Shown here in pieces: positions 3,113 through 58,561 of a stretch of 64,000 bases of DNA. Each line of letters starts with the position of its first letter. Within the stretch, counting starts at the first letter, position 1. The notes under the pieces are model-generated. The model saw only the letters and a program-made list of their open reading frames with translations, was not told the origin of the DNA and did not search any database. The stretch is from Nanobdellota archaeon (lineage in GTDB: Archaea; Nanobdellota; Nanobdellia; Woesearchaeales; DATGWN01). The position numbers and the translations under genes were made by a program. The DNA lies in contig JBNJGI010000001.1 in the NCBI GenBank assembly GCA_051819685.1, positions 18 to 64,017 of the forward strand, written 5' to 3'.

Positions 3113-3187
3113 ACAAAATTAATAACCAAAATCATTTATAAACCTTTTGACTCATTCGATGAATCATGGAATAAAGTTAAGGATTTT

Positions 3188-3304
3188 AAGTGATAATATT
3201 GTCTTGAAGTAATTTTTGAATTTGAAGTAAAACGACTTACAGGAGCGTAAATTCAATCAAATTCACCCTGAGGGACGAACATTAGTTCGCAATATCCCTC
3301 ACTT
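3188..3304 (+). repeat. Intergenic repeat element A copy (about 120 bp, TIR-bounded hairpin element)
   Basis: Matches the A consensus (gagtgatgatattgc...cgacttacaggagcgyaaattcaatcaagttcgccc...gttcgcaatatcactcac) seen in at least 9 copies. Confidence 0.7.
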
Positions 3305-3315
3305 TTTTTATTTTA

Positions 3316-3400
3316 AGTGTCAATTATTTGACAAAATTAGTCTATCCAAATTTCTGGGTTTTCTGCAAGGCAATATAAAAATACAACAAATTTCATGTCG
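3316..3400 (-). repeat. Repeat module B (left half of composite element BC), inverted
   Basis: Reverse complement matches tagtaggcgacataagattgttatatttttatattgccttgcagaaaacccagaaatttgg... found at 26731, 35581 and 44031. Confidence 0.65.
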
Positions 3401-3466
3401 TTAACTAAATAAACAAAGGATTTATAAATATAAATTTGATAAAATCTATTAAAAGAGGGGCTATAT

Positions 3467-11194: not shown

Positions 11195-12310
11195 ATGGCG
11201 AAAAAAATAATAACATCGGAAAGTGTCACAGAAGGTCATCCAGACAAAGTATGTGATAAGATAAGCGATTCATTGCTTGATGCTTACCTTGAACAGGATC
11301 CGGAATCAAGAGTAGCGATAGAAACTTTAGTCAAAGAAAACACAGTCATACTGGCAGGAGAGCTGACAAGCAAAGGAAGTGTAAACATCCAGGAAACAGT
11401 AAAAAAAACATTAAAAGATATCGGATATGACAACGAAGAATTTGGGATGGATCTTAATCTCATCGAAGTAATTTCCAAAATCAACAGGCAAAGCCCTGAT
11501 ATAGCTCAAGGAGTAAATGAAGACGATCATGAACAAGGAGCTGGAGATCAAGGGCTTATGTATGGTTATGCTTCTAACGAAACCGATAACTACATGCCTT
11601 TACCCATTGACTTGGCGCATAAGCTTACAAAAAGATTAAGTGAGGCAAGAAAATCAAAAGAAATAGAAAATTTAGGACCTGATGGAAAAAGTCAAGTATC
11701 TGTAGAATATGAAGATGGAATACCCAAAAGAATTGTAAATGTAGTAATAGCACAGCAACATACAGATGATATAAATGAAGATAAATTAAAACAAGAAATA
11801 AAAGAAAAAATAATAAAACCTGTATGCAATAAATACATAGACGAAAATACAAAATATTATATAAATGGTACAGGAAAATTCATAATAGGAGGACCTGCAG
11901 CTGATGCAGGATTGACAGGAAGAAAAATTATCGTCGATACATATGGTGGAATAGGTCGTCACGGTGGTGGTGCATTTTCAGGAAAAGACCCTTCTAAAGT
12001 TGACAGAAGCGCTGCTTACATGGCAAGACACATAGCTAAAAACATAGTAGCAAAAGGATATGCTGATAGATGTGAACTACAAGTAGCTTATTGCATAGGA
12101 GTTGCAGAACCAATGAGTATTGCGATAAACACTTTCGGAACCTCTAAAATTCCAGGCAAAGATATAGAAAAATGGGTAAGAGATAATTTCAGTCTTAAAC
12201 CGGCAGAAATAATAAAATATCTTGAACTAAAAAAACCAGTATTCTATGAAACAGCCGCTTATGGCCATTTCGGAAGAGAATCTTTCAAATGGGAAAAAAT
12301 AATAGAATAG
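11195..12310 (+). CDS. metK: S-adenosylmethionine synthetase, bacterial/eukaryotic-type (MetK)
   Basis: MAKKIITSESVTEGHPDKVCDKISD, GGGAFSGKDPSKVDRSAAY; TATA-like tattttataaaaag about 25 bp upstream of the ATG at 11195. Confidence 0.9.
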   Translation: MAKKIITSESVTEGHPDKVCDKISDSLLDAYLEQDPESRVAIETLVKENTVILAGELTSKGSVNIQETVKKTLKDIGYDNEEFGMDLNLIEVISKINRQSPDIAQGVNEDDHEQGAGDQGLMYGYASNETDNYMPLPIDLAHKLTKRLSEARKSKEIENLGPDGKSQVSVEYEDGIPKRIVNVVIAQQHTDDINEDKLKQEIKEKIIKPVCNKYIDENTKYYINGTGKFIIGGPAADAGLTGRKIIVDTYGGIGRHGGGAFSGKDPSKVDRSAAYMARHIAKNIVAKGYADRCELQVAYCIGVAEPMSIAINTFGTSKIPGKDIEKWVRDNFSLKPAEIIKYLELKKPVFYETAAYGHFGRESFKWEKIIE

Positions 12311-12324
12311 GCACAATCAAAAAA

Positions 12325-12449
12325 GTGAGTGATATTGCGAACAAATGTTCGTTCCTCCGGGCGAACTTGATTGAATTTACGCTCCTGTAAGTCGTTTTAC
12401 TCCTTACCGCAAATTCAAAAATTACTTCAAGGCAATATCATCACTCATT
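12325..12449 (-). repeat. Repeat element A, most complete (canonical) copy
   Basis: 125 bp between convergent metK and nucleotidyltransferase genes; terminal inverted repeats gtgagtgatattgc / gcaatatcatcactca; internal complementarity (ttgaatttgcg / cgtaaattcaa; gtaag / cttac). Confidence 0.75.
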
Positions 12450-12497
12450 TTATTGCATGTGCCATAGAATAAAAAAATACATAAAAAAGCAAAGTTA

Positions 12498-14581: not shown

Positions 14582-14662
14582 CGACATAAAATTTTTGTAT
14601 TGCCTTACAGCAATTTTTAATTATTCTGCGCCATATAAAATACTTTTATTTATGTTACCAAC
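14582..14662 (+). promoter_or_regulatory. Degenerate BC promoter-like module upstream of the pilin-like operon
   Basis: acataaaatttttgtattgccttacagcaa ... ttattctgcgccatataaaatacttttatttatgtt matches B and C modules (ccatataaaat TATA-like). Confidence 0.5.
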
Positions 14663-14736
14663 CACTAAAAAAAAACATTTATAAATACAAAGAGAGAAAA
14701 AAGTATATTGAATATAACTTTGCGAGGTGAAAATAA

Positions 14737-22398: not shown

Positions 22399-22551
22399 AA
22401 ATGTTAAATAATTCCCATATTTATATATTTTTCAATATATATTCCTTTTCCATTCCTTACTCTTAATTCAAATATTACTTCAAAATAATTCATAACTCAT
22501 ATAATTTTATTTCCAAAATATTTATAAAAGGATGCAATTCCACAAAACACT

Positions 22552-26653: not shown

Positions 26654-26730
26654 ATTAATTTATGATAATGTCTTTTCTTTTAAATAATTTGTTATACATA
26701 ACTGTTAAAATACTTCTTATAAATTAAATA

Positions 26731-26815
26731 TAGTAGGCGACATAAGATTGTTATATTTTTATATTGCCTTGCAGAAAACCCAGAAATTTGGCTAGACAAA
26801 TTCTGTCAAATATTG
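26731..26815 (+). repeat. Repeat module B
   Basis: tagtaggcgacataagattgttatatttttatattgccttgcagaaaacccagaaatttggctagacaaattctgtcaaatatt. Confidence 0.7.
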
Positions 26816-26826
26816 AAACTTAAAAT

Positions 26827-27114
26827 AAAATGAGTGATGATATTGCTTCGAAGTAGTTTTTTAATTTGCGGTAAGGAGTGAAACGACTTACAGGAGCGCA
26901 AATTCAATCAAGTTCGCCCGGACAAAATAATTTGCCTTTACAAATTGACTTGTTCGGGGGGTTTTATACCCTTTTACTTTTATTAAACTTGTTTAAGGCT
27001 AGGAACAAAGTGACTATACCGCACTAAAAGTTTCTACTTGTTGAAACCGCCGAAAGGTTTTCCTTGACAGCGTGCCGGAACAGTTTCACGAATATTTGTT
27101 CGCAACATCACTCA
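26827..27114 (+). mobile_element. Repeat element A copy interrupted by a nested ~157-bp GC-richer insertion (26922..27078)
   Basis: A left arm to gttcgcccgg, then unrelated segment ending gcgtgccgg, then A right arm aacag...tttgttcgcaacatcactcac. Confidence 0.6.
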
Positions 27115-27120
27115 CTTTTA

Positions 27121-27211
27121 TAGATGTGCTCAAATTTCTTAATAGTTAAACCATTAGTGTTTAATTATCCTGCGCCATATAAAATATACTTTATTTATGT
27201 CGTCTACTAAT
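27121..27211 (+). promoter_or_regulatory. Repeat module C (right half of BC): palindromic gttaaacc-N-gtttaat site + ccatataaaat TATA-like box, about 100 bp upstream of the 27313 gene
   Basis: Near-identical to 37796..37885 and reverse copy 43958..44030. Confidence 0.6.
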
Positions 27212-27312
27212 ATTCCTTAAATAGTCGTTGACATAGATAAAGTATAACACTCTTATATCGTTGACTAAAAAATCATTTTATTTAAAAATAATAAAAACTT
27301 CCCTATTTCAAA

Positions 27313-28071: not shown

Positions 28072-28126
28072 ACAATCCTAATCTAATACATCATCTATTA
28101 TTTTTAATTTCTTTAATCAACACATA

Positions 28127-28247
28127 AAATAAGGATAATATTTCCTTGAAATAATATTTTAATTTTGGGTAAGAAATGGAATTATTTACAGGAGCGCGAA
28201 TTTAATCAAGTTAACATAGAACAAACATTTTTAACAATATCACTCAC
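28127..28247 (+). repeat. Repeat element A copy (degenerate left arm)
   Basis: ...ttacaggagcgcgaatttaatcaagtt...aacaatatcactcac. Confidence 0.6.
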
Positions 28248-28305
28248 TTTTTTGTATAAGTTTTAAATCAAAGTATTTATAAATAAGCTAAAACGACACT
28301 TTTAT

Positions 28306-29805
28306 ATGGAAGAATCTGATATTTTAGAAAAAGAAAAGAAAAGAAAATTAGAAGAGATAAGAGCTATGGACATTAATCCTTATCCTTATTCTTATAAAAG
28401 GGATTCATATTCATATGATATAAAAGAATTAAATTCTGGGCTTGAAAAAGAACAACATTCTGAAAATAAATGTTCAGTAGCAGGAAGAATAATTTCTATA
28501 AGACGTATGGGGCGTGCTTCTTTTATGCACATTAAAGACCAGAAAGGCAAGATACAATTATACTTAAGAGAAGATTCTGTAGGTAAGAAAAATTATAAGT
28601 TTTTGAAAAAATTAGATATAGGTGACTTCATAGGGGCTGAAGGTGAGATATTTAAGACAAAAACAGGCGAAGTATCGATATATGTCAGTGAATATTCAAT
28701 ATTAAGCAAATCTTTGAAACCCTTACCTGAAAAATTCCATGGATTGAAAGACAAAGAATTAAGATATAGACAAAGATATCTCGATCTTATAATGAATGAT
28801 GAAGTCATGGATATATTCAGGAAAAGAAGTATTATAATAAAAGCTATAAGAGAATTCCTTGATAATAAAGGTTTTTTAGAAGTAGAAACACCTTTACTTC
28901 AAACTCAGTACGGTGGTGCTAAAGCAAGACCTTTCGAGACACATATAAATGCTTGGGATATGAAAATGTACTTATCTATTTCACCTGAGCTTTATCTTAA
29001 AAGATTATTAGTTGGTGGTTTTGAGAAAATATATACTATATGCAAAAATTTCCGTAATGAAGGTGTCGATCAAAGCCACAATCCTGAATTCACGATGATA
29101 GAGATTTATCAGGCTTATACTGATTATAATGATATGATGAAGCTGATTGAAGAATGTTATGAATATGTATCTTTAAAAGTCAATGGAAATACAAAGATAA
29201 ATTATAATGCAAATGGAACTTATCACGAAGTTGACTTAAAAGCACCTTGGCCAAGATTATCTATGGCTGAAGCTATAAAAAAATATTTATCTATAGATGT
29301 TAAAGATATGAGTAAAGAAGAACTTGTTGATTTCGCAACCAAAAATAATCTTGAAGTGAGTGCTAATGACACTTGGGGTGATATTGTTATAGAAATATTT
29401 GAACTAGTGGAAGAAAAAATAATACAACCTACACATATTTATGATCATCCTAAAGAAGGAACTCCTTTATGCAAAAGCAAAAGAGATGATAATAGGTTCA
29501 ATGAACAATGTGAACCTATAGGATTTGGTATGGAATTAGGTAATATGTATTCTGAGCTTAATGATCCTGATCTTCAGGAAAAACACCTTAGTGCGCAAGC
29601 AGAAAAAGGAAGAGGTGGTGATGAAGAAGCTCACCCAATGGATAATGATTTTATCAATGCTATTAAAGTAGGGATGCCTCCTACTGGTGGAATCGGCTGG
29701 GGTATTGATAGGATGGTTATGTTACTGACAGGAGCTGAAAGTATAAGGGATGTAATTCTATTTCCTACAATGAAACCTGAAGATAAAGAAGAAACTAATT
29801 CTTGA
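28306..29805 (+). CDS. lysS: Lysyl-tRNA synthetase, class II
   Basis: OB-fold N-terminus, FRNEGVDQSHNPEFTMIE (motif 2), GGIGWGIDRMVMLLTGAESIRDVILFP (motif 3); TATA-like tatttataaata about 25 bp upstream. Confidence 0.9.
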   Translation: MEESDILEKEKKRKLEEIRAMDINPYPYSYKRDSYSYDIKELNSGLEKEQHSENKCSVAGRIISIRRMGRASFMHIKDQKGKIQLYLREDSVGKKNYKFLKKLDIGDFIGAEGEIFKTKTGEVSIYVSEYSILSKSLKPLPEKFHGLKDKELRYRQRYLDLIMNDEVMDIFRKRSIIIKAIREFLDNKGFLEVETPLLQTQYGGAKARPFETHINAWDMKMYLSISPELYLKRLLVGGFEKIYTICKNFRNEGVDQSHNPEFTMIEIYQAYTDYNDMMKLIEECYEYVSLKVNGNTKINYNANGTYHEVDLKAPWPRLSMAEAIKKYLSIDVKDMSKEELVDFATKNNLEVSANDTWGDIVIEIFELVEEKIIQPTHIYDHPKEGTPLCKSKRDDNRFNEQCEPIGFGMELGNMYSELNDPDLQEKHLSAQAEKGRGGDEEAHPMDNDFINAIKVGMPPTGGIGWGIDRMVMLLTGAESIRDVILFPTMKPEDKEETNS

Positions 29806-31199: not shown

Positions 31200-31244
31200 A
31201 TTATTAAGCAAAAAATATTTCTATTTATAAAGCTTTTTGTTATT

Positions 31245-31300
31245 TAGTCTGAACATTAGATTTTTTTATTTTTATATTACCTTGCAGAAAATTCATAAAT
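31245..31300 (+). repeat. Partial B module
   Basis: tttttatattaccttgcagaaaattcataaatttgc. Confidence 0.4.
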
Positions 31301-31437
31301 TTGCTTTTATATTAAAAAGCAGTTTAATTATAAATCTAATTAAAGTTAAATTTCTGTTAATTCCAATTATCATTTATAAATATATTATCTTAAAAACAAA
31401 AAACATAAAAATAACTTATTAACTTTAGCAAATTACA

Positions 31438-32531: not shown

Positions 32532-32694
32532 TTTTAAACCTCTAAGTTCTTAAACAATCGTGGAATATTTAATTTATAAATTTTTCTCTAAATCGGGCTT
32601 TGCGTATCATAAAAATCCCATATTATCGGTAATATTTTTCTTTGATTTTTAAAATTTGAATTTACAATAAAAAATGCCTTTAATTGACATATAA

Positions 32695-32790
32695 ACTAAA
32701 ATAAGTGATAATAATACCTTGAAAGCGCAAATTTAATCAAGTTCATAAGAAGAAGAATTGAAAAATTGTTTGCAATATGACTCATTTTTT
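32695..32790 (+). repeat. Repeat element A, internally deleted copy
   Basis: aagtgataataatacc...gcgcaaatttaatcaagttc...tgcaatatgactca. Confidence 0.55.
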
Positions 32791-32830
32791 TAGTGTTACT
32801 CTGAATAAAACTTTTATAGATTAAAAATAT

Positions 32831-35537: not shown

Positions 35538-35580
35538 AAAATATTATATGCTTTCGTTTTTTAAAAAACTATTCTTTTAA

Positions 35581-35665
35581 TAGTAGGCGACATAAGATTG
35601 TTATATTTTTATATTGCCTTGCAGAAAAACCCGAAATTTGACTAGACTAATTCTGTCAAATATTA
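35581..35665 (+). repeat. Repeat module B
   Basis: tagtaggcgacataagattgttatatttttatattgccttgcagaaaaacccgaaatttgactagactaattctgtcaaatatt. Confidence 0.7.
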
Positions 35666-35676
35666 ACAATTATAAC

Positions 35677-35796
35677 AAAATGAGTAATGATATTGTTATT
35701 TGAGTTATGAGTTTACAGTTATAAGTCTTAAAATCAAAACTAATTTACTCAATCGCCCTGAGGGATTAATATTAGTTCGCAATATCACTAATTTTT
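35677..35796 (+). repeat. Repeat element A, diverged interior copy
   Basis: aaaatgagtaatgatattg ... ctgagggattaatattagttcgcaatatcacta; followed by start of C (gtagatgcgctc). Confidence 0.55.
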
Positions 35797-36320
35797 GTAG
35801 ATGCGCTCTTTTGATAATCTGGTGTAGATAGTATTTCTTCAAATCTGTTCAAAGGGATTTTTCTTTCAAGATTTGCAGGTAAAGAGGTCACTATTATTTT
35901 TCTATCATCAGATTCTTTTTCTGCTAAAATCAAAGGCAAACCTAAATCAAAATTATCCCTTATACCTTTAAAAGACATAGTTTTATGTGTAATATAATGC
36001 CATGGCATGAATTTTTTTGAAAAATTTTGGACTAATTCATCAAAACTTCGATAACCATCATTCCCATTAATTAACTCATCATATAAATTAGATAAATTAC
36101 TTCCTGGAAAAGGTTCATCATTAGGAGTTACAATTGATTTAATTCTAATTTCAGGATCACCTGGTCTTGAAATCCTTTCATCAAGGTAAGATATCATCTT
36201 TTTTCCGCTCAATAAAAGACTTAATTTCGTTTTATGGAAATCATATAAACTACTTTCATATAAATCAGCATTTTGTAGAAAAGTATCGACGGATTCGTTT
36301 AAAAGTATCTTATTATCCAT
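35772..36320 (-). CDS. Hypothetical protein (182 aa)
   Basis: ORF; 3' end overlaps repeat. Confidence 0.35.
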   Translation of the reverse strand: MDNKILLNESVDTFLQNADLYESSLYDFHKTKLSLLLSGKKMISYLDERISRPGDPEIRIKSIVTPNDEPFPGSNLSNLYDELINGNDGYRSFDELVQNFSKKFMPWHYITHKTMSFKGIRDNFDLGLPLILAEKESDDRKIIVTSLPANLERKIPLNRFEEILSTPDYQKSASTKISDIAN

Positions 36321-37604: not shown

Positions 37605-37664
37605 TTTATATAAAATAATTTAAAACTGACTTATAAATATTTTGAACATTTGAAACATAAAAAT

Positions 37665-37790
37665 AAATAAGGAAGGATATTACTTTGAAATAAATTTTGG
37701 GTTTGCGATAAAAAATGGAACTAGTTACAATAGTGCAAATTCAATCAAGTTCACCCGGAGGAACTAGCATTTGTTCGCAACATCACTCAT
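37665..37790 (+). repeat. Repeat element A copy
   Basis: ...agtgcaaattcaatcaagttcacccggaggaactagcatttgttcgcaacatcactca. Confidence 0.6.
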
Positions 37791-37795
37791 TTTTA

Positions 37796-37885
37796 TAGAT
37801 GTGCTTAAATTTCGTAATAGTTAAACCATTATTGTTTAATTATCCTGCGCCATATAAAATATACTTTATTTATGTTGTCTACTAT
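37796..37885 (+). promoter_or_regulatory. Repeat module C (palindrome gttaaacc-N-gtttaat + ccatataaaat TATA-like) upstream of tRNA-Leu
   Basis: Near-identical to 27121..27211. Confidence 0.6.
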
Positions 37886-37927
37886 TTTATGGATAATTTT
37901 TTAAAGGTAAGTTTTTTCAGAAAGTTT

Positions 37928-38057
37928 GATTTGCGGGGGTAGCAAAGTCTGGTCAAATGCGCAGGACTCAAGTAATTGAGTGATGAGCCGGAAGGCGATG
38001 ATTTTGCATTTGAGCAATCCTGTCTCTTAGTGAGTTCAAGGGTTCGAATCCCTTCCC
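37928..38057 (+). tRNA. tRNA-Leu (anticodon CAA), type II long variable arm, 44-nt intron in anticodon loop (about 37968..38011)
   Basis: Acceptor gcggggg/cccccgc, U8, D-arm, anticodon stem cagga/tcctg with loop c-t-CAA-g, T-arm aaggg-ttcgaat-ccctt, discriminator a; no encoded CCA. Confidence 0.8.
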
Positions 38058-38262
38058 CCGCATTTTATTCTAAAATGCTTTGTCAGGTATTCGAACGTCT
38101 TCAGAATCAAAGATTCTTCGAGTTACTCGTAAACTCGTAACAATCCCTTCCCCCGCATGAACGAAGTGAAGAGGTGGAAGGTCAGGGAAAATACTTTTTC
38201 CCGCTACCTTCCCCCGCATTTTATTCTAAAATGCTTTGTCAGGTATTCGAACGTCTTCAGAA
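38046..38262 (+). repeat. Tandem duplication (unit about 156 bp) of the tRNA-Leu 3' end and downstream 45 bp; a third partial tRNA-3' copy lies at 38137..38152
   Basis: ccttcccccgcattttattctaaaatgctttgtcaggtattcgaacgtcttcagaatcaaa occurs at 38046..38106 and 38202..38262. Confidence 0.75.
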
Positions 38263-38274
38263 TCAAAATAACTT

Positions 38275-38982
38275 CTATTTCTCAATTTCAAGTATTGCAT
38301 TAATCTCTTTATCTACAATAGCACACCCGTTAAGCTTCAAAGCCCATAAAATACCTTCAAGTATACCTTTATCGAAATCTTTCCTTTTTTGGAAATTAGA
38401 TAATTTATAGAAATCAAGAAGACCTTTTTCATATGCAATAGTTGCAAGCTCGCATGATCTTATCGCTCTGATAAAACCAACCTTTTTCTTTAAATTTTCA
38501 ATCATTTCAGTTTTTACATCTATCTTAGTATGAAGTTTTCTCTCAAGTCTTTTCTTTATCTTCAAAGGTGCTTCAATAAGATATCTAGTATTCCTTTCAT
38601 CAATAACAAGAGTCTTAATATCATATTTAATACAAGTAGCAATAGCTTCTGCTTCAGCGTAATGTACTATCTTTACAGCATTCCCTTTATTGAAAAAACA
38701 CTTATTAGCAATATCCAGTATTTCATTTGCTTTTTTAGAAATATCTTCATCATCTTTTTCGTCCACTATCTTTAAAATACCATTAGCAATATAAGGCATT
38801 ATCCTTATACTTTCAAACTTATATTTCTTAGTTTTCATAGGACGATCTATTATCTCTTTACTTACACTTTTAGGTATAATGAATTCACCATTGAAATTTT
38901 TCTTCAATGCTTCTAGAAGCCATTGGGAACCGCTCATAGTAAGACTTATAATAGGACCAGAATCAAAAACAATACCTCTCAT
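38275..38982 (-). CDS. PIN-like nuclease domain protein (putative toxin-like)
   Basis: N-terminal IVFDSGPIISL, acidic residues in HYAEAEAIA / LVIDERN. Confidence 0.4.
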   Translation of the reverse strand: MRGIVFDSGPIISLTMSGSQWLLEALKKNFNGEFIIPKSVSKEIIDRPMKTKKYKFESIRIMPYIANGILKIVDEKDDEDISKKANEILDIANKCFFNKGNAVKIVHYAEAEAIATCIKYDIKTLVIDERNTRYLIEAPLKIKKRLERKLHTKIDVKTEMIENLKKKVGFIRAIRSCELATIAYEKGLLDFYKLSNFQKRKDFDKGILEGILWALKLNGCAIVDKEINAILEIEK

Positions 38983-39542: not shown

Positions 39543-39600
39543 TAACTCAACCTCTTAACATTACTTTATGAACTGGTATTTAAAAATTTATTTATACATT

Positions 39601-39655
39601 AGTCAACGACCTAAGATTGTTATATTTTCATATTGCTTTGAAGCAATATTTTAAC
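39601..39655 (+). repeat. Partial B module upstream of the aIF2-gamma gene
   Basis: agtcaacgacctaagattgttatattttcatattgctttgaagcaa. Confidence 0.45.
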
Positions 39656-39740
39656 ATTTACTTCTAGGCAATATATTCACTAACTTTTTTTCATGCCAAG
39701 TTGTCCAAATATTTATAAATAGACTTTTTTTCGCATATAT

Positions 39741-43957: not shown

Positions 43958-44098
43958 AATAAAGTATATTTTATATGGCGCAGAATAATTAAACACTTAT
44001 GGTTTAACTATTACGAAATTTGATAGAATTAGTCTAGCCAAATTTCTGTTTTTTCTGCAAGGCAATATAAAAATATAACAATCTTATGTCGCCTACTA
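43958..44098 (-). repeat. Contiguous composite BC element (reverse orientation); C part carries the palindrome and TATA-like box facing the CNNM gene
   Basis: Reverse complement reads tagtaggcgacataagattgttatatttttatattgccttgcagaaaaaacagaaatttggctagactaattctatcaaatttcgtaatagttaaaccataagtgtttaattattctgcgccatataaaatatactt. Confidence 0.7.
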
Positions 44099-44114
44099 TT
44101 TTAGAACATATAAC

Positions 44115-44243
44115 AAAATGAGTGATGATATTGCCTTGAAGTAAAGTTTGAATTTGCGGCAATAAGTGAAACTACTTACAGGAGCGCAAATTCAATCTTA
44201 TTCGTCCGGAGACACGAAAGATTATTCGCAATATCACTCGCTT
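44115..44243 (+). repeat. Repeat element A copy
   Basis: aaaatgagtgatgatattgccttgaag...cttacaggagcgcaaattcaatc...ttattcgcaatatcactcgcttttt. Confidence 0.7.
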
Positions 44244-44374
44244 TTTGTAAGTATACCAGAAACTGGTAAAATATATATTCAATTTGAATTAACTTATAAA
44301 AAACTACGCAATTTCATTAAACAATAATAACAAATATTTATAAATGAATCTGTTCCTTTAAAAACAGGGGTTTA

Positions 44375-47300
44375 ATGGTAGATAAAAAAGAAGGTGAAAA
44401 GCAGTCTTTTGAGGAACTAAATGAAAAATTTAATAATCTCAAAAAATTAGCTTCAGAATTCGGTGTAGGAACAGATAAAAGCGATAAAGAAAAAAATGAT
44501 AATATAGTAAATCTTTCTGTAGATAATTCTAAACCCTATGAAAAAGAAAACGATCTCAAGTTAGTCGAAAATACAGCTGAATCTTATAATGAAGTTGAAG
44601 TATATGATAGTATTTCAGAAAACAAGGATAAATTTACGCTTAACAAAGAAAATTTATCTGACGATTCCATCAACAAATTCAATGATGGGATAATAAAGAT
44701 TAAAGATGAGATAAAAAAATCTCTTGGTGGATCAATATCGCCTGATATTAAAGAAGATACACCGGAAACTAACACTAATGAAGAAGAATCTTTTGAAAAC
44801 AAACAATCTCAAAAAGAAATAATAGAAAAAGAACCAGTTGAGCAGAATAATTCAGATAAAGCTGAAGAAATCCAAGAAGAAAAAAAGATAGAAGAAGAAA
44901 ACAATAAACTTCAGGAAAAAATAAATAAAAAACAACATCTTAAGAACAAATACATCCAGTTAGAGGAAGATATCAAAGATGCGAAAAACATCCATAAATT
45001 AAGAAAAGAAATAGAAAAAAAGAATAAAAAAATAGATGAGAAACTTTATTATCTCGAATCTAAAGAAAGTGAATTAGCTGAAAAATCTACACAAATCTAT
45101 GAAAAAGAGAAAGAACTTGAAGAAACAAGAAAAAAATTATTCATGAAAGAGCAGGAAGTAGGTGAACTTATAGAAAAAAATGTAGAAAAAGTCAAGGAGT
45201 TCGATGATAAATCTACTGAAATCAGTGATAAATCAAAAGATATAGCTCAAAGGGAAAATGAATTATTGGTGCAAGAAAAAAAGCTAATGAAATTACAATC
45301 AGAACTTAATGAAGAACAGATCAAATTAAAAAATAATTCATTAAAACAAGAAAACAGCTGGAAAAAAGCAAAAAGTAAAATAGATGAGATGGAAAGATAT
45401 GTGACTGATAAAGAAAAAGAGATCAAATCAAGATTAAAACACCTCAATGATAAAGAAAAAAATCTCAAAAAGAAAGAAGAAAAAGTAAACAAAACAGAAA
45501 AAGGTATACATGAACACCTAAACCATATCAGTAAAAGGGAAAAGGAAGTTGATAAGAAAGAAAAAGAACTTCATAAAAAAGAAATAGGAATGAATGACCA
45601 AGAAGAAAAACTATCTCAGAAAAAACTCGAGCTTGAAGAAACATTAAGACATAATAATAACATAAAAAAAGAGCTTGAAGATAAAAGAAAAGAAATTGAT
45701 GAAATTGAAAAAGATAAGCAGAAAGCACTTGAAGAATATAACAATTACCTTAAAGAAAAAGATGCTCTTGAACAAGAAAAAAACAGACTAAAAAAACTTG
45801 AAGAGGATATTCTTGAAAACGAAGAAAATGTAAGAAAAAATGCTAATGTATTGAAAAAACGTGAAAATGAACTGGAAATAAGAGAAAGGAAAGCCGAAGA
45901 TCTGATAGAACATAATAATTCATTAAAACTTAAATTAGAAGAAGAAGAATCTAAGAAAAAAGATGTAAAGAAACTACACAAAGAGTTAAAAGATAAGAAA
46001 ATAGAAATTGAAAAAGAAAAAAATAATTATGAAACATTAAGTGATGAACTCAAACAGAAAATTGAAATAAATAAACAAGAAAAAAATAACCTTGAAAAAG
46101 AAAAGTCAGAAATTAAAAATAATAAAAACAATCTTGAGAAAAAAGAGAAAGATCTTACTAAAAGGGATGCTCAAATACAAGTAAAAGAGAATGATATCAA
46201 ACAAAAAGAGAAAGAAATAAATGTTTATCTAAAACAAAAGAAAGAGTTTGAAAAAGAACTTGAAAATATAGAAACCAAAAAAACTGAATTAAGAGATAAA
46301 GAAGCAGAAATACAAGGAAAAATCGATAAAAATACTGCAATGCTTGATGAAATAGATCAAAAAAGTCAGCAAATTGAAAAAGAAAAGTCAGAAATTTCAG
46401 AAAAAGAAAATGATATTGAAAGTAAAGAAAAAGAATTAAAAACATTATTGGAAGAAGAAAAGAAAAGTAAAACAAGAACCTCTCAAATAGAATCTGAAAA
46501 GAAAAAAGAGCTTAAAGAACTACAATCACTAAAAAAAGATCAAGGAAAAACCAATAAGGAACTTGAAAACAAAATAAATAAGGTTGAAAAAGAAAGAACT
46601 CTTCTTCAAGAAAAACAAGAATCGCTCAAAACAAAGGAATCTGAAATAAAATCCAAACTTGAAGAAATAAAGACCGAAAAGAAAGAAAAAGAAAAACTAC
46701 TTGCTAATCTTGACAAGAAAGAAAAATCTCTTGCTAAAGAAGAAGTCCGTATAGATAAAAAATCAAGTGAACTTGAAGAAAAATCCAAAGAAGATGAAGC
46801 AAGAAAATCTGACATCAAAAATCTTATATCTGAAAAGAAATCTGTTCTGGAAGATCTTGATAAAAAAGAAAAAAACATCTCCAAACTTGAAGAAGAATAC
46901 AATAAAAAACTTTCATCCCTCACAAAAAAAGAAGAATCGCTCAAAACAAAGGAATCTGAAATAAAATCCAAACTTGAAGAAATAAAGACCGAAAAGAAAG
47001 AAAAAGAAAAACTACTTGCTAATCTTGACAAGAAAGAAAAATCTCTTGCTAAAGAAGAAGTCCGTATAGATAAAAAATCAAGTGAACTTGAAGAAAGAAG
47101 TGCTTCAGTCATTGAAGATGAAAAAAATCTTAAAACCAAAAATCAGAATTATCATAAAAAGATGAAAGAACTAGAAAAAAAATCTGAAGAATTGAATATT
47201 CACGAATCTGATCTGAAAGAAAGAGAAATGCAAAATAGGAAACTAATTGATGAAATAAAAGAAGAAAAAACCCAGGTTGAAGGTATCAAACAAAAAATCA

Positions 47301-47935
47301 CTGACATCAATAAAAATATTGAAGATAAAGACATTAATCTAAAAAATAAAGAAAAGGAACTTAATTCACGTGAAGAAAGAGTTAAATCTACTGAAGAAGA
47401 TATCTATAATAGAAAAGATCAAATCGAAAAGAAAGAAAAAGAACTTTTCAACGCTAAAAAACTTGTAGAGGATATGAAGGAACAAATAAAAGAAGAATAT
47501 TTAAAAATAAACCAGACGAAAGATTTGCTTGATGATAAACTAAAAATGACAGAAGAAAAAAGACAGTTATATGAAAAAGAATGGGAAGAATTTCAAGAAA
47601 AATCCAAAGAAACAGAAAACACAAAAACTCAGTTCCTTGAAGCTAAGGAAAAATTGGAAGAGATAAAATCCAGATCAGAAAAAGAATTAGATAATCTTTT
47701 AACGGAAAAGAACAAATATATACGTGAAAACAAAAAAATGCGTCAGATGAATCATGAAATGAAAAAGAAAAAAGAAATCTTGGATGTTTCAAAACATAAG
47801 ATAGCTGGAAAAATAAAAGAACTCACAAAAAAAGAAAAAGCTTTACAATCAAAAGAATCTATATATAATAAAAAAGAAGAATTTTTAAATAGATATGAAA
47901 AGGAATTGGTCGAGAAGGAAAAGAGGTTAATATGA
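44375..47935 (+). CDS. Giant (1186 aa) K/E-rich coiled-coil protein
   Basis: Continuous heptad-like EKEKELKK low complexity; no TM or signal peptide; TATA-like atttataaatg + cagggg upstream. Confidence 0.7.
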   Translation: MVDKKEGEKQSFEELNEKFNNLKKLASEFGVGTDKSDKEKNDNIVNLSVDNSKPYEKENDLKLVENTAESYNEVEVYDSISENKDKFTLNKENLSDDSINKFNDGIIKIKDEIKKSLGGSISPDIKEDTPETNTNEEESFENKQSQKEIIEKEPVEQNNSDKAEEIQEEKKIEEENNKLQEKINKKQHLKNKYIQLEEDIKDAKNIHKLRKEIEKKNKKIDEKLYYLESKESELAEKSTQIYEKEKELEETRKKLFMKEQEVGELIEKNVEKVKEFDDKSTEISDKSKDIAQRENELLVQEKKLMKLQSELNEEQIKLKNNSLKQENSWKKAKSKIDEMERYVTDKEKEIKSRLKHLNDKEKNLKKKEEKVNKTEKGIHEHLNHISKREKEVDKKEKELHKKEIGMNDQEEKLSQKKLELEETLRHNNNIKKELEDKRKEIDEIEKDKQKALEEYNNYLKEKDALEQEKNRLKKLEEDILENEENVRKNANVLKKRENELEIRERKAEDLIEHNNSLKLKLEEEESKKKDVKKLHKELKDKKIEIEKEKNNYETLSDELKQKIEINKQEKNNLEKEKSEIKNNKNNLEKKEKDLTKRDAQIQVKENDIKQKEKEINVYLKQKKEFEKELENIETKKTELRDKEAEIQGKIDKNTAMLDEIDQKSQQIEKEKSEISEKENDIESKEKELKTLLEEEKKSKTRTSQIESEKKKELKELQSLKKDQGKTNKELENKINKVEKERTLLQEKQESLKTKESEIKSKLEEIKTEKKEKEKLLANLDKKEKSLAKEEVRIDKKSSELEEKSKEDEARKSDIKNLISEKKSVLEDLDKKEKNISKLEEEYNKKLSSLTKKEESLKTKESEIKSKLEEIKTEKKEKEKLLANLDKKEKSLAKEEVRIDKKSSELEERSASVIEDEKNLKTKNQNYHKKMKELEKKSEELNIHESDLKEREMQNRKLIDEIKEEKTQVEGIKQKITDINKNIEDKDINLKNKEKELNSREERVKSTEEDIYNRKDQIEKKEKELFNAKKLVEDMKEQIKEEYLKINQTKDLLDDKLKMTEEKRQLYEKEWEEFQEKSKETENTKTQFLEAKEKLEEIKSRSEKELDNLLTEKNKYIRENKKMRQMNHEMKKKKEILDVSKHKIAGKIKELTKKEKALQSKESIYNKKEEFLNRYEKELVEKEKRLI

Positions 47936-49404
47936 TGCAGGGATCAGATAATAATTCAAGCAGTTATGGTAGTTTATTGAAAAATCTAAGTAATCGACTA
48001 AATGAGGTTAAGACTGAAAAAGATAACGAGTATATAACAAAAAAAAACAATGAACTAAAAGAACTTTTAGATTCTTACAGCAAAAAAAATTCATATGAAC
48101 AATCTTCTAAAAAAACATACCAGCATGATTCTGTAACAGAAGCTACTAATTTTGCTAAAAAAGACGATTATCTAAAAGAAAAAGAAGCTCGTCTGAATAA
48201 AGAGCAAGAAGAAATTGAACATGAAAAGTTTATTTTAGATTCAAAACAAAGAGTAATGAATAAAGAACTAGATTCTTTAAATAATCCTGAAGTTGTAAAA
48301 GTGCTTGAAGAGATTGAGAGAAGATCTTCCTTACTTTCTCAAAATAAAAAATATTATGAAGATAGGGAAAAAGAGATATCAAGAAGAGAAGATAAAATAA
48401 GGGAAAGAGAAAATCAGGTACAATTATCACATCAAAAATTATTAGATGAAAAGAAAAAATTATCTCATGATATATTCGATCTTAAATCATCCCGTGATAA
48501 TATTAAATTTGAAATCGACTCATTGCAACAGGAAAAATCCACTCTTGATTCTGTAGTTAAAGAAAGAACTCAATTAATAGAAGATCTCAACAAACAATAT
48601 CAGGAATCAAAGATTGAACTTAAAAAAATACAAGACAGCATATTATCTGAAAGAAAAGCTTTCGCAAGATTAAAAGAAGATACAGATGAAGAAAAGAGGA
48701 ATCTGGAAAGTGAAAAAAAATCTTTTGAAGAATATAAAAATGCTTTTTACGAAAAAGTCAACAGGTTATCTGAAGAATCAAAGAAAGAACTAAGTGATTA
48801 CAAGAAAAATGTGCTTTCTGAAATAGAAGAAAAGTCGGAAAAGATAAATAAAAAATATAAAGAGATTCAGGAAAAAGAAAAGAAGGTCAATAATAAAGAA
48901 CAAGAACTGAAAGATTTTGAAGAAAAGTTATATAGAAAGCTAGAAGAATCAGATAAAAAAGAAAAATCAATTGAAGAAGAAAAAAAGAAAATAGATGAAT
49001 TAAAAAATGATTATGAAAAAAAGAACGAAGAAATAAATAATTATGAAGATGAATTAAAAAAGATTGAAAATACAGTTATGGACCTTAAAAATGTTGTCGA
49101 TCGTAAAGAAAAAGATATAAAAGAAAAACAGAAAATACTCGATGAGAACATAAATTATTTCGAGAAACTGCAACATAATAACAGATATGAAAAAAAATTG
49201 AAAGAAGTAATATCCGGTATAGAGTCTAAAATTAAAGAAAAAAATATAATAGGGGCGCAAAAGCTATATGCTCAAGCCAATATGATATATAAAAATTCAC
49301 CGGAAAACGTAAAAAAATTTTACAAAAGTAAACTTGCTTCAATTAAACAAAGGATAACTATAATGTCAAAAAGAAATTCAGGAGGTGTTTCACATGGTGA
49401 ATAA
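47932..49404 (+). CDS. Coiled-coil protein (490 aa), 4-bp overlap with previous
   Basis: ATGA overlap; K/E-rich heptads. Confidence 0.65.
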   Translation: MMQGSDNNSSSYGSLLKNLSNRLNEVKTEKDNEYITKKNNELKELLDSYSKKNSYEQSSKKTYQHDSVTEATNFAKKDDYLKEKEARLNKEQEEIEHEKFILDSKQRVMNKELDSLNNPEVVKVLEEIERRSSLLSQNKKYYEDREKEISRREDKIRERENQVQLSHQKLLDEKKKLSHDIFDLKSSRDNIKFEIDSLQQEKSTLDSVVKERTQLIEDLNKQYQESKIELKKIQDSILSERKAFARLKEDTDEEKRNLESEKKSFEEYKNAFYEKVNRLSEESKKELSDYKKNVLSEIEEKSEKINKKYKEIQEKEKKVNNKEQELKDFEEKLYRKLEESDKKEKSIEEEKKKIDELKNDYEKKNEEINNYEDELKKIENTVMDLKNVVDRKEKDIKEKQKILDENINYFEKLQHNNRYEKKLKEVISGIESKIKEKNIIGAQKLYAQANMIYKNSPENVKKFYKSKLASIKQRITIMSKRNSGGVSHGE

Positions 49405-51490
49405 TTCTGCTGATTATTCTTATGAACTTCCGGATCTTCCTTCAGATCTAAATCCTGAAGAAAATAACGACAAAAAAACAGAAGAGGAACCTGAAAATAA
49501 TAATTCGTCTGATAATCTTGATTTCTCTCCTGAAGATTATAATTTTGATGAAGAAGAAGAACTTATAAGTACATTTGGTAGTGATGATAAAAAGGTAGCT
49601 GAAAAAGGTGCTCTTGACCATGAAATAAACACCTTGAGTTCAAGAAAACAGGAATTAGAAAATAAAGTATCTGAACTTACTGATAAGATATTCAAACTAA
49701 AAAAAGAATATGAAAATAACAAAGGAGTTCTTGATGATGACATAAAGAAAGTAAAAGAACTCATGGATGAATCCTCAAAAGCCAAAGAAGAATATAACCA
49801 AAAAATAAACGACTTATCGAATAATCAGGATAAAGTGGCTTCTGTTCTTGAAGATCTCGAAAAACAAAAAGAAGCCATAAATAAAAAGCTTGAAGAAGCT
49901 GAAGAAAACAGAAAAACATATGAGAATAAGAAAAAAGAGATAGATGATGAAAAAGAAAGTATTAATCATCTCAAAAAATCTTTAGAAGAAAAAGAAAAAA
50001 GGCTTAATGAAAAAGAAAAAGAGATAAATGAGACTGACAACACAACATCATCAAAAAGGTTCGAGATTTCAAAAAAAATACAAGAAATAAAAGATGCCTA
50101 TGAAAAATTAAAAAATAAAGAAAAGGATCTTGAACAACGTGAAAAAAATCTGGCACTTAATGTAAGCAACCTCAAAAAAAATCAAATTGATTTCTCAAGA
50201 CAAAAAGATCAATTCATGAAAAACACCAAAAACATACATGAAAAGCTCAATTACATAAAAACAAAAGAACAAGAAGTTAAAAATATCTTTAATTCAGTAT
50301 CAAGAAAAGAAAAAGACTTGAACCAAAGGGTAAAAAAACTTAAGGAACAAAAGAAAGATCTTGAAAAAAGGGAAAATAAAATATATACAATATCAGGTGA
50401 AATAGAAGGTCATAAAAGGATTCTTAATGATCTGAAAGAAAAAAAGAAAGAAATATCAAAAGAAAATAACTCATTAGAAAAAGAGAATGAAAAATTAAGA
50501 AAAAAGAAAACAGATCTATCCGGTCAGATTATGTCTCTTGAAAATAAATATAATTCATTAAAAAACGATATAAAAGCTTCAAAATTCAGTAATGCTGAAA
50601 CTGAAAAATATCTTGACTCACAAAGAAAAGAACTTGAAAAGTTCAATAAGGAACTATCGCAAAAACAACTTGAATTAAAACAAAAAGAAGTGGATCTAAA
50701 TAAAAATTCAGTATTGGCAGAACAAAAAAGGATAAGAGCTGAAGGTCTTGAGAATCAACTGGAAGAAAGGGAAAAATTTTTAGTCAAACAACAAGAAGAT
50801 ATTAAAAAAGAAGAAGCAAGAATACAATCTTTAGTATCTAAACATACCGGTCTTAAAGAAAAGATAAAAGAACTTGAGATGAGAGAAAGAGATATGAATC
50901 TCAAAATATTAAGCTTCGAAAAAAGAGAAGAAGCTCTTAAGACACTTGAATCAAATCTCAAACAAAGAGAAGAAGAATTGAAGCAAAAAGAAGAAGCAAG
51001 CTCTCCTCTTCAGCTAGAATCTGAAATAACTAAGAAAAAAGAAAAGATATCGTCTCTTGAAAAAGAAAAAGAAGATCTTCAGAATCAATTGAAACAGAAA
51101 GAAGAAGAAATGAATAAAAAACTTCAAGAGAAAGAAAAACAAGTAGAACAAGATGGAGAAGAAACTTCATCTCTTGAAAAAGAAAGGGATGAACTGAAAG
51201 CCAAGAACAAGGAATTGCTTCAGAATAACACTCAATTACAGACAAATATGGATAGTATTAAGACCGAAAGGGATGCATTAAAGACGCAAGTCAAAGATCT
51301 TAACTCTACACTACTTGATGTTGAAAAGAACAAGGTAAAGTTCGTCGATGAAGATCAGGATGTAAAAACAGTTCTTCAAATAACTGATGATCTATTAGAA
51401 AATCTTCCTGAAGATGTATTGAAAGAATTCGTTAAATCAGACAACTATAAGATATTCGAAAAAGTATTCAAAAAATACAACATAGAATGA
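49394..51490 (+). CDS. Coiled-coil protein (about 699 aa), acidic N-terminus, overlaps previous stop; aggaggtg SD
   Basis: ATG 49394 seven nt after aggaggtg; track shows GTG-extended 49385. Confidence 0.65.
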   Translation: MVNNSADYSYELPDLPSDLNPEENNDKKTEEEPENNNSSDNLDFSPEDYNFDEEEELISTFGSDDKKVAEKGALDHEINTLSSRKQELENKVSELTDKIFKLKKEYENNKGVLDDDIKKVKELMDESSKAKEEYNQKINDLSNNQDKVASVLEDLEKQKEAINKKLEEAEENRKTYENKKKEIDDEKESINHLKKSLEEKEKRLNEKEKEINETDNTTSSKRFEISKKIQEIKDAYEKLKNKEKDLEQREKNLALNVSNLKKNQIDFSRQKDQFMKNTKNIHEKLNYIKTKEQEVKNIFNSVSRKEKDLNQRVKKLKEQKKDLEKRENKIYTISGEIEGHKRILNDLKEKKKEISKENNSLEKENEKLRKKKTDLSGQIMSLENKYNSLKNDIKASKFSNAETEKYLDSQRKELEKFNKELSQKQLELKQKEVDLNKNSVLAEQKRIRAEGLENQLEEREKFLVKQQEDIKKEEARIQSLVSKHTGLKEKIKELEMRERDMNLKILSFEKREEALKTLESNLKQREEELKQKEEASSPLQLESEITKKKEKISSLEKEKEDLQNQLKQKEEEMNKKLQEKEKQVEQDGEETSSLEKERDELKAKNKELLQNNTQLQTNMDSIKTERDALKTQVKDLNSTLLDVEKNKVKFVDEDQDVKTVLQITDDLLENLPEDVLKEFVKSDNYKIFEKVFKKYNIE

Positions 51491-58020: not shown

Positions 58021-58377
58021 TCAGAAAAGTTAATTAAAATAATTAAATCTTTCAATTATGAAAATCATAAAAACAAAGGCAGAACAATATGCAAAAAAGC
58101 AATATAAAAAAATTATTCTTTCCATCAATATTCATATCTAGAAAAAGTTCTACACATAGCTTTACAAATAGCAAAAAAATAAAAAATGCAATGTTAGGTC
58201 ACTCAACAAAATATAGAATCCAATTTAAAGAAAAAAATTCTAAAGAGGGCAAAATATTATATGGTGCAGATAAATAAATATTTCTTACTACAAATGAAAC
58301 AATTGAAAAATACTTACCTTTACTTTATTTTCAAGAAACAAAGGAATTAGTAAGAAAAAACCTCTGGAACATACAAT

Positions 58378-58504
58378 AAAATAATTGATGATATTGCCTC
58401 GAATTAATATTTGAATTTGTGGTAAGGAGTAGAATTATTTAAAGGAGCGTAATTCAATCAAGTTCGCTAGGATAAAATATTAGTCCGCAATATCACTCAC
58501 TTTT
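58378..58504 (+). repeat. Repeat element A copy
   Basis: aaaataattgatgatattgcctcgaatt...aaaggagcgtaattcaatcaagttcgc...agtccgcaatatcactcactttt. Confidence 0.7.
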
Positions 58505-58561
58505 ATGAATGCGCCAAAACTCCGATAAATTTAAATCTATTAAAAAATTACACTTTTTCTT

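Follow-up and report, generated by a model that had tools for sequence, protein, structure and literature searches.

The window, a 64-kb stretch of DNA with a GC content of 25–34%, carries a short repeated element whose best-preserved copy, 154 bp in length, occupies positions 12310–12463 of the minus strand and lies over the stop codon of metK. A perfect 8-bp direct repeat (8/8), ATAGAATA, flanks this copy at positions 12302–12309 and 12464–12471, a match with a null frequency of ∼1e-4. The TA of the duplication and base G12310 of the element together form the metK stop codon TAG. The element-free sequence reads ...GAA TAA, and the MetK protein is therefore unchanged by the insertion.

The boundaries of the element were set by alignment of the copies with 90-nt flanks. 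Conservation ran ∼15 nt past each end of the ∼125-bp unit proposed in the earlier note, and the unit is thus 154 bp, with copies of 143–159 bp. The ends of the best copy are GGCACATGCAATAAAATGAGTGATGATATTGC and GCAATATCACTCACTTTTTTGATTGTGCC, with tips GGCACA...TGTGCC. Inverted repeats at the termini, previously put at 16–20 bp, are indeed present, but they are ∼32 bp long and imperfect, with 25 of 34 aligned positions matching and one 3-nt indel in the best copy. The A-rich and T-rich flanks (aaaataa and ttttat) in which the shorter unit had been placed are the outer parts of these terminal repeats, A-run and T-run included. Both terminal repeats vary in concert across subfamilies, as is seen in helix 1 of the covariation count described below. 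Two further hairpins lie inside the element, TTGAATTTGCG/CGCAAATTCAA with GTAAG/CTTAC, and CGAAC/GTTCG, and the full 154-nt unit folds as RNA at −51.8 kcal/mol. No copy has a stop-free stretch of more than 52 codons, these stretches differ from copy to copy, and the element has no coding capacity. Pairwise identity among the copies is 49–91%, which indicates that the family is old, and since no pair is more than 91% identical there is no sign of recent activity. GC content is 39% in the best copy and has fallen to 23% in the most decayed one.

A blastn search with the 125-bp copy as query recovered all nine copies that had been listed from the letters (positions 3189, 12325 (−), 26829, 28134, 32700, 35679, 37676, 44117, and 58380), and the nhmmer profile matched them with E-values of 1e-47 to 1e-14. 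The 18-nt terminus AATGAGTGATGATATTGC has five matches at three or fewer mismatches, as against 0.10 expected by chance. With the addition of two one-ended remnants the window contains 11 loci, amounting to ∼1.4 kb or 2.2% of the 64 kb and to a density of about one locus per 6 kb. The hundreds of copies per genome put forward in the earlier note would be an extrapolation from such counts.

Further full-length copies are found at 37652–37805 (+), 44103–44256 (+), and 58366–58515 (+). The first of these is diverged, and its right flank is a promoter-like cassette (see below) upstream of a tRNA gene at 37933. The second lies between a cassette at 44032–44103 and the gene of that cassette, which starts at 44375, and presumably sits in the 5′ leader of this gene. 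The third retains a decayed duplication, AAACCTCT/AAAACTCC (6/8). The copy at 3171–3317 (+), which is almost full length but lacks 7 nt internally and has diverged at its 5′ tip, adjoins the outer end of the cassette at 3340–3410. The observation that some copies are internally deleted or diverged was confirmed: the copy at 32686–32800 (+) is missing consensus positions 39–80, and the copy at 35665–35807 (+) is diverged, its 3′ end supplying the last codons and stop of an ORF on the minus strand (35772–36320). Between a methyltransferase gene and lysS lies a decayed copy (28114–28263, +) of 23% GC that has lost its fold. The copy at 26815–27130 (+), within a divergent promoter cassette, is 316 bp long with a nested segment. 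The remnants are the 5′ half of an element at 22448–22514 (−; consensus 1–69, 78% identity) and a fragment comprising only the 5′ terminal repeat at 39650–39695 (−; consensus 5–50).

The nested segment of the 26815 copy (26923–27087) is a unique sequence of 165 bp and 40% GC bracketed by a CCGGA repeat, with no second copy in the window. It could be another mobile fragment or a retained part of the interior of the parent insertion sequence. The reading of this segment as an RNA gene was rejected, its fold not being significant (z-scores of −0.7 and −1.6) and Rfam giving no match.

Copies occupy convergent, divergent, and tandem intergenic contexts and are found 5′ and 3′ of genes alike; they are intergenic or, at most, clip the last codons of genes. 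Read-through from the neighboring genes would cross the element in the forward direction in about five copies and in the reverse direction in about four, in keeping with the earlier description of copies in either orientation relative to genes. Along the window itself eight of the nine two-ended copies share one orientation (binomial p ∼0.04). A replication-linked origin of this bias was considered and set aside: the bias is weak, it does not flip anywhere in the window, and GC skew there is dominated by the coding strand.

The lysyl-tRNA synthetase encoded by lysS (28306–29805) is 100% identical to MGM5483309.1 (“MAG: Nanobdellota archaeon”), and its next relatives are Woesearchaeota and Nanoarchaeota proteins with at most 70% identity (65–70% for those compared). 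The archaeal genes of the window include an intron-bearing tRNA and an Orc1/Cdc6-type ATPase (Pfam matches); aIF2-gamma, L7Ae, and ABCE1 we take to be present from inspection by eye of the ORF translations. Judging from the LysRS match and this archaeal gene content, the host of the element is a Nanobdellota (Woesearchaeota-like) DPANN archaeon rather than a bacterium. DPANN archaea have streamlined genomes of ∼1 Mb.

Scanning of the genome contigs with the 17-mer GTTCGCAAYATCACTCA gave 85 single-match loci. Two contigs, L007 (JBNJGP010000157.1) and L060 (JBNJGP010000132.1), proved by nhmmer to be true multi-copy carriers, the remaining matches being due to chance. The profile detected full-length copies at 1769–1921 and 2391–2544 of L060, and copies at 1171–1329 and 3958–4104 of L007 together with a 3′ remnant at 82–170. 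There are thus five copies beyond the window, in 9.1 kb in total, beside unrelated archaeal genes. The earlier note had made its reading depend on there being further copies and on their not all being co-linear with one flanking gene, and on both points the contigs agree with it. The copy at 2391–2544 of L060 supplies the last codons and stop of an aMBF1 gene, and L007 terminates within a copy, as expected because assemblies break at repeats. Both contigs, which have a GC content of 28%, are filed under the MAG [quoted passage not shown]. They encode aMBF1, archaeal RqcH, replication factor A, an archaellin/pilin N-terminal domain, and an archaeal HemK-related methyltransferase. Given these archaeal proteins and the presence of both the element and the promoter cassette, the two are probably DPANN contigs that were wrongly binned with a bacterial MAG; their source is the same organism as that of the window or a close relative. 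No other carrier came up when JGI metagenomes and IMG/VR were scanned for exact patterns, and the archaeal lineage represented by the window, L007, and L060 is the only one in which the element was found.

Two IMG/VR contigs gave partial matches within a phage tail-protein ORF (L087 7994–8041 and L086 4765–4812), which contains AATTCAATCAAGTT and, ∼13 nt on, ACATTTGTTCGCAA. The additional 14-mer was unexpected and goes beyond what the search pattern demanded. These contigs were judged to match by coincidence, the matching sequence being coding and of higher GC, amid bacterial-phage gene content.

Target-site duplications were sought at 12 copies with the ends fixed by alignment, and random window positions served as the null. 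Direct repeats matching at 6 or more of 8 positions flank 5 of the 12 copies (8, 8, 7, 6, and 6 matches) as against 1.5% of random positions, for which our own binomial estimate from the 1.5% null is ∼6e-7. In addition to the focal copy, the copy at 1769–1921 of L060 has a perfect 8-bp duplication, AAAAATCC. The other L060 copy (2391–2544) is flanked by AGATAATA/AGACAATA (7/8), and the copy at 26815 by CAAATATT on the left (26807–26814) and CAAATTTC on the right (27131–27138), which agree at 6/8 positions. About half of the 12 copies have no recognizable duplication, as would be expected of old copies.

A paralogous empty site exists for the 26815 copy. The divergent promoter cassette (∼190 bp) is uninterrupted at 43958–44102, with a single CAAATTTC at mid-cassette (44015–44022, −), whereas the cassette at 26722–27213 is split by 324 bp made up of CAAATATT and the element; the right flank CAAATTTC is the target sequence. 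Sequence 43958–44102 is co-linear, at ∼95% identity, with 26730–26805 plus 27130–27197, and the difference between the empty and the filled cassette is exactly the element and one duplication. The copy at 3171–3317 meets the same cassette end at another junction and in the orientation opposite to that of the 26815 copy, which points to an independent insertion in the same region. The contigs of the nearest LysRS relatives (65–70% identity) contain no element, no cassette, and no synteny, and therefore provide no orthologous empty site.

The 8-bp duplications, the paralogous empty site, and the presence of copies on other contigs by unrelated genes bear out the MITE-like behavior suggested in the earlier note. 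The element is very probably a 154-bp non-coding DNA transposon, a MITE, with imperfect terminal inverted repeats of ∼32 bp. The features by which a MITE is recognized and which are found here are small size without coding capacity (143–159 bp, below ∼500 bp), terminal inverted repeats, a target-site duplication of fixed length (8 bp), an empty and a filled site (the paralogous 43958–44102 and 26722–27213), and dispersed copies with differing neighbor genes (11 loci in the window and five on L007 and L060).

Several of the copies adjoin a promoter-like cassette of ∼70 nt with the consensus ...AAATTTCTGGGTTTTCTGCAAGGCAATATAAAAATATAACAATCTTATGTCGCCTACTA. The window contains 10 of these, five on the plus strand (3340–3410, 14612–14664, 27145–27213, 37820–37888, and 44032–44103) and five on the minus strand (26727–26797, 31242–31305, 35577–35647, 39595–39659, and 43958–44008); others are located at 3875–3943 of L007 (−) and 69–133 of L060 (+). 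Every cassette faces a gene or tRNA start 31–272 nt downstream, and transcription is predicted to start ∼25 nt after ATATAAAAATA. Two cassettes placed back to back form the divergent unit of ∼190 bp. Between unrelated genes, a tRNA gene and a pilin gene among them, cassette identity reaches 98%, and the length and similarity of the cassettes suggest recent copying. No target-site duplication was seen at the one complete cassette unit examined. Beside copies of the element the cassettes are 93–98% identical between loci, whereas the adjoining element segments are 71–91% identical, from which we conclude that selection keeps the promoters and not the element.

The same junction between the element 3′ end and a cassette occurs at three loci (27094–27209, 37769–37884, and L007 3875–4000), placing this combination upstream of a methyltransferase gene, a tRNA gene, and, on the other contig, a pilin gene. 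Likewise, the same junction between a cassette and the element 5′ end occurs at two loci (26730–26845 and 35580–35695), the left flank of the 35665 copy being a cassette joined exactly as at 26815. Identity is 96% between 27094–27209 and 37769–37884 and 91% between 26730–26845 and 35580–35695. Two explanations are possible: duplication or gene conversion may have copied the composite whole, or the element may repeatedly hit one position in the cassette. The copies thus cannot all be counted as separate transposition events.

The inner 5′ arm of the element, GATATTGCCTTGAAGTAA (12415–12438, 44128–44152, and others), when reverse-complemented, resembles TTCTGCAAGGCAATAT, the part of the cassette just upstream of the TATA-like box. 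The promoter profile matches the element arm weakly (E 0.05–0.2). This likeness could reflect a shared protein-binding site or common ancestry.

The long hairpin raises the alternative, akin to the structured intergenic RNA family of the earlier note, that the copies are structured non-coding RNA genes or cis-regulatory RNAs, such as a terminator or stabilizer hairpin, that are kept by selection, with mobility secondary or absent. Hairpin potential was upheld in intact copies, whose minimum free energies lie well below those of shuffled sequences (z = −5.6 at 12325 and −4.4 at 44117), but not in decayed copies, which fold no better than shuffles (z = +0.5 at 28134 and −0.25 at 37676) and are two of the seven copies whose folds were computed. 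The forward strand folds somewhat better than the reverse (−40.3 versus −34.6 kcal/mol). Of the 11 copies whose 3′ arm is aligned, 8 have a run of at least five T residues immediately behind this arm, oligo-T being an archaeal termination signal. In the 12-copy alignment, standard pairs fill 83.3% of the cells of the reference fold as against 81.8 ± 0.5% after shuffling (3 of 500 shuffles reach this value), and 11 pairs are changed on both sides as against 7.4 ± 1.7 (10 of 500). Over the pairing and covariation measures as a whole only 3–18 of 500 shuffles attain the observed values. The excess is marginal, and according to the documentation of the pair-counting tool related sequences often exceed shuffles without any structure. 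Changes on both sides that preserve pairing, A-U to G-U to G-C, are seen at alignment columns 49/90 and 54/85. Many of the both-side changes, however, fall in the outermost terminal repeat, where they are expected because both ends of a transposon subfamily change together. RNAalifold yields only a weak consensus (−5.2 kcal/mol; covariation term −0.3), and Rfam has no match to the element at the gathering score or at E ≤ 1, the tRNA being the sole match in the window. The copies show no preference among 5′, 3′, and divergent contexts, their orientation relative to read-through is mixed, and the element diverges much faster than the adjoining cassettes, which are far better conserved. Insertion, moreover, is demonstrated by the duplications and the empty site. 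The marginal covariation, the lost folds, the fast divergence, and the mixed orientation favor a selfish element with a by-product hairpin, and we regard maintenance as an RNA as highly improbable. Some selection on the hairpin is conceivable, and it is plausible that the element incidentally affects transcripts.

If the element were a module in an intergenic mosaic, spread without a transposase through segmental duplication, unequal recombination, or gene conversion as in bacterial BIMEs, this would account for the flanks common to some copies (the 91% and 96% pairs), for the recurrence in L007 of the junction between element 3′ end and cassette, and for the presence of the cassettes themselves 10 times in the window. 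Against this, the best copies (12310–12463 and L060 1769–1921) have unique flanks and perfect 8-bp duplications, which recombination does not create; the empty and filled cassettes differ by just the element and one duplication; and the element meets the cassette at 3340 the other way round and at another junction, which indicates an independent insertion. The present sample leans to unique flanks with 8-bp duplications, and spread by recombination is given very little weight as the explanation of the family. The strongly palindromic sequence would also suit a REP/RAYT-type or IS200/IS605-derived palindromic element (PATE) mobilized as single-stranded DNA by a Y1 (HUH) transposase, and the common orientation of eight of nine two-ended copies could hint at a strand-biased mechanism. 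The orientation bias is nonetheless weak (p ∼0.04) and unchanged across the window, and the element has long terminal inverted repeats and not subterminal hairpins with a fixed flanking tetranucleotide. Elements of this kind make, to our knowledge, no target-site duplication, whereas the 8-bp duplications are significant here. A PATE origin is accordingly barely credible.

A C/D-box or K-turn reading of the motif GTGATGA in the 5′ arm was also rejected. The D box (CTGA) is present in only 3 of 12 copies, and the pairing of the 5′ arm is that of a plain helix that has a 1-nt bulge.

The copies show that the element inserts into new sites with duplication of 8 bp of the target. Its landing contexts are unrelated, comprising stop codons, the spacers between tandem genes, and the interior of promoter cassettes, and decay follows. 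The combination of an 8-bp duplication and long terminal inverted repeats points to a DDE-type transposase acting in trans. Such an enzyme, encoded elsewhere in the genome, would bind both ends, cut A/T-rich spacer DNA with an 8-bp stagger, and integrate the element there. No transposase was found among the ORFs of the window by comparison with Pfam, nor on L007 or L060. The palindromes and the long hairpin would be a by-product of the inverted-repeat architecture and not a selected RNA structure. To a read-through transcript a copy would add a stable hairpin and, directly after it, an oligo-T of 4–7 T residues, and these could incidentally end or stabilize archaeal transcripts.

We know of no target-site duplication made by IS200/IS605, REP/RAYT, IS91, or IS110 elements, and the IS630/Tc1 type duplicates TA. 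The 8-bp duplication therefore excludes these mechanisms. Duplications of 8 bp are made by more than one family, among them ISL3, IS256, IS1595, and the ISH1 group of IS5. An IS6/IS26-like parent, to which the termini may point, is possible although rather doubtful. This family has an 8-bp duplication (PMC7986276) and a terminal-repeat consensus, GGTTCTGTTGCAAA, in which G1, G2, and G7 are conserved (PMC6807381). Archaeal IS6-like terminal inverted repeats are longer than 14 bp, and ISfinder includes two IS6-family MITEs, MITEBth2 and MITEHarch3, of 227 and 336 bp (PMC7986276, PMC6807381). The element shares with the family its 8-bp duplication and a GG tip, which 4 of the 12 copies have, the best ones among them (the best copy begins GGCAC). 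The match to GGTTCTGTTGCAAA is otherwise loose: G7 is absent, with T7 and G8 in its place followed by CAAT or a loose CAA(T)AAA, and at 154 bp the element is smaller than the IS6 MITEs. All 27 annotated IS families have been reported from Nanobdellota genomes (PMC13343696), and taxonomy therefore does not narrow the choice of parent.

The shared junctions suggest that the MITE and the promoter cassettes together might make up a regulatory mosaic that is itself mobile, comparable to the BIME- and Correia-type repeats but in an archaeon. MITEs would land at the upstream edge of the ∼70-nt cassettes and then give portable homology for the gene conversion or duplication by which adjacent promoters move to new genes. 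We think this unlikely; were it so, transcription in a minimal, host-dependent archaeal genome would be rewired with the help of a selfish element.

Elements of similar form are known from bacteria. Correia elements (CREE/NEMIS) of Neisseria are ∼100–155 bp long, have terminal inverted repeats of ∼26 bp and the potential to form a long hairpin, and are intergenic near gene ends, where they can affect neighboring transcripts; promoter, IHF-site, and RNase III effects are documented. The present element resembles them in its size, inverted repeats, hairpin potential, and intergenic position near gene ends. It differs in duplicating 8 bp, where Correia elements duplicate a TA dinucleotide, in its archaeal host, and in being known here from its sequence alone. 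Rickettsia palindromic elements (RPEs) are palindromic repeats of ∼100–150 bp, present in many copies in the small, AT-rich genome of an organism that depends on a host, and the element is like them in all these respects. RPEs often insert in frame within genes and have no clear inverted-repeat or duplication signatures, unlike the element, which is intergenic or clips last codons only, has terminal inverted repeats and 8-bp duplications, and resides in an archaeon.

MITEs are already well known in bacteria and archaea, so the type of element is not new, and general knowledge of MITEs is unchanged by it. A 2024 census of prokaryotic MITEs found the highest archaeal densities in DPANN, with one Woesearchaeal genome at 105 per Mb (PMC11602168). 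The element is like the catalogued archaeal MITEs in being small, non-coding, bounded by terminal inverted repeats, intergenic, multi-copy, and dense in a reduced DPANN genome; set against 105 MITEs per Mb, one family alone accounts here for 11 loci within 64 kb. As far as we have checked, the sequence family appears not to have been individually described, the MITEs of the census having been compared by description. A reduced DPANN genome evidently tolerates a MITE at about one locus per 6 kb, with insertions that clip stop codons, split a promoter cassette, and occupy a presumed 5′ leader, and the question arises whether gene regulation in such archaeal genomes is shaped by selfish repeats. 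Its exact ends, its 8-bp duplications, and the empty site make the element a well-defined example for annotation, where it can be masked and can explain contig breaks. It also has a use in quality control of binning, having flagged two archaeal contigs in a bacterial MAG.

Downstream of the 44103–44256 copy, the region 44375–51490 consists of three successive large ORFs (1186, 490, and 701 amino acids) that are extremely Lys/Glu-rich, coiled-coil-like, and repetitive. They contain internal direct repeats (for example, 46611–46781 matches 46926–47096 at 99%) and govern the local AT and GC skew.

The intron-bearing tRNA gene next to the 37652–37805 copy spans 37933–38062 (130 nt, with ∼47 nt in the anticodon loop) and was missed by ARAGORN in bacterial mode. 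Its intron holds TGAGTGATGA, a 10-mer that is also present in the 5′ arm of the element. The 3′ end of the tRNA, CCCTTCCCCCGCA, has two more occurrences downstream (38145–38158 and at the start of 38207–38280) and begins a 74-nt direct repeat (38051–38124 and 38207–38280). These repeats of the tRNA 3′ end may be att-like scars of an integrated element.
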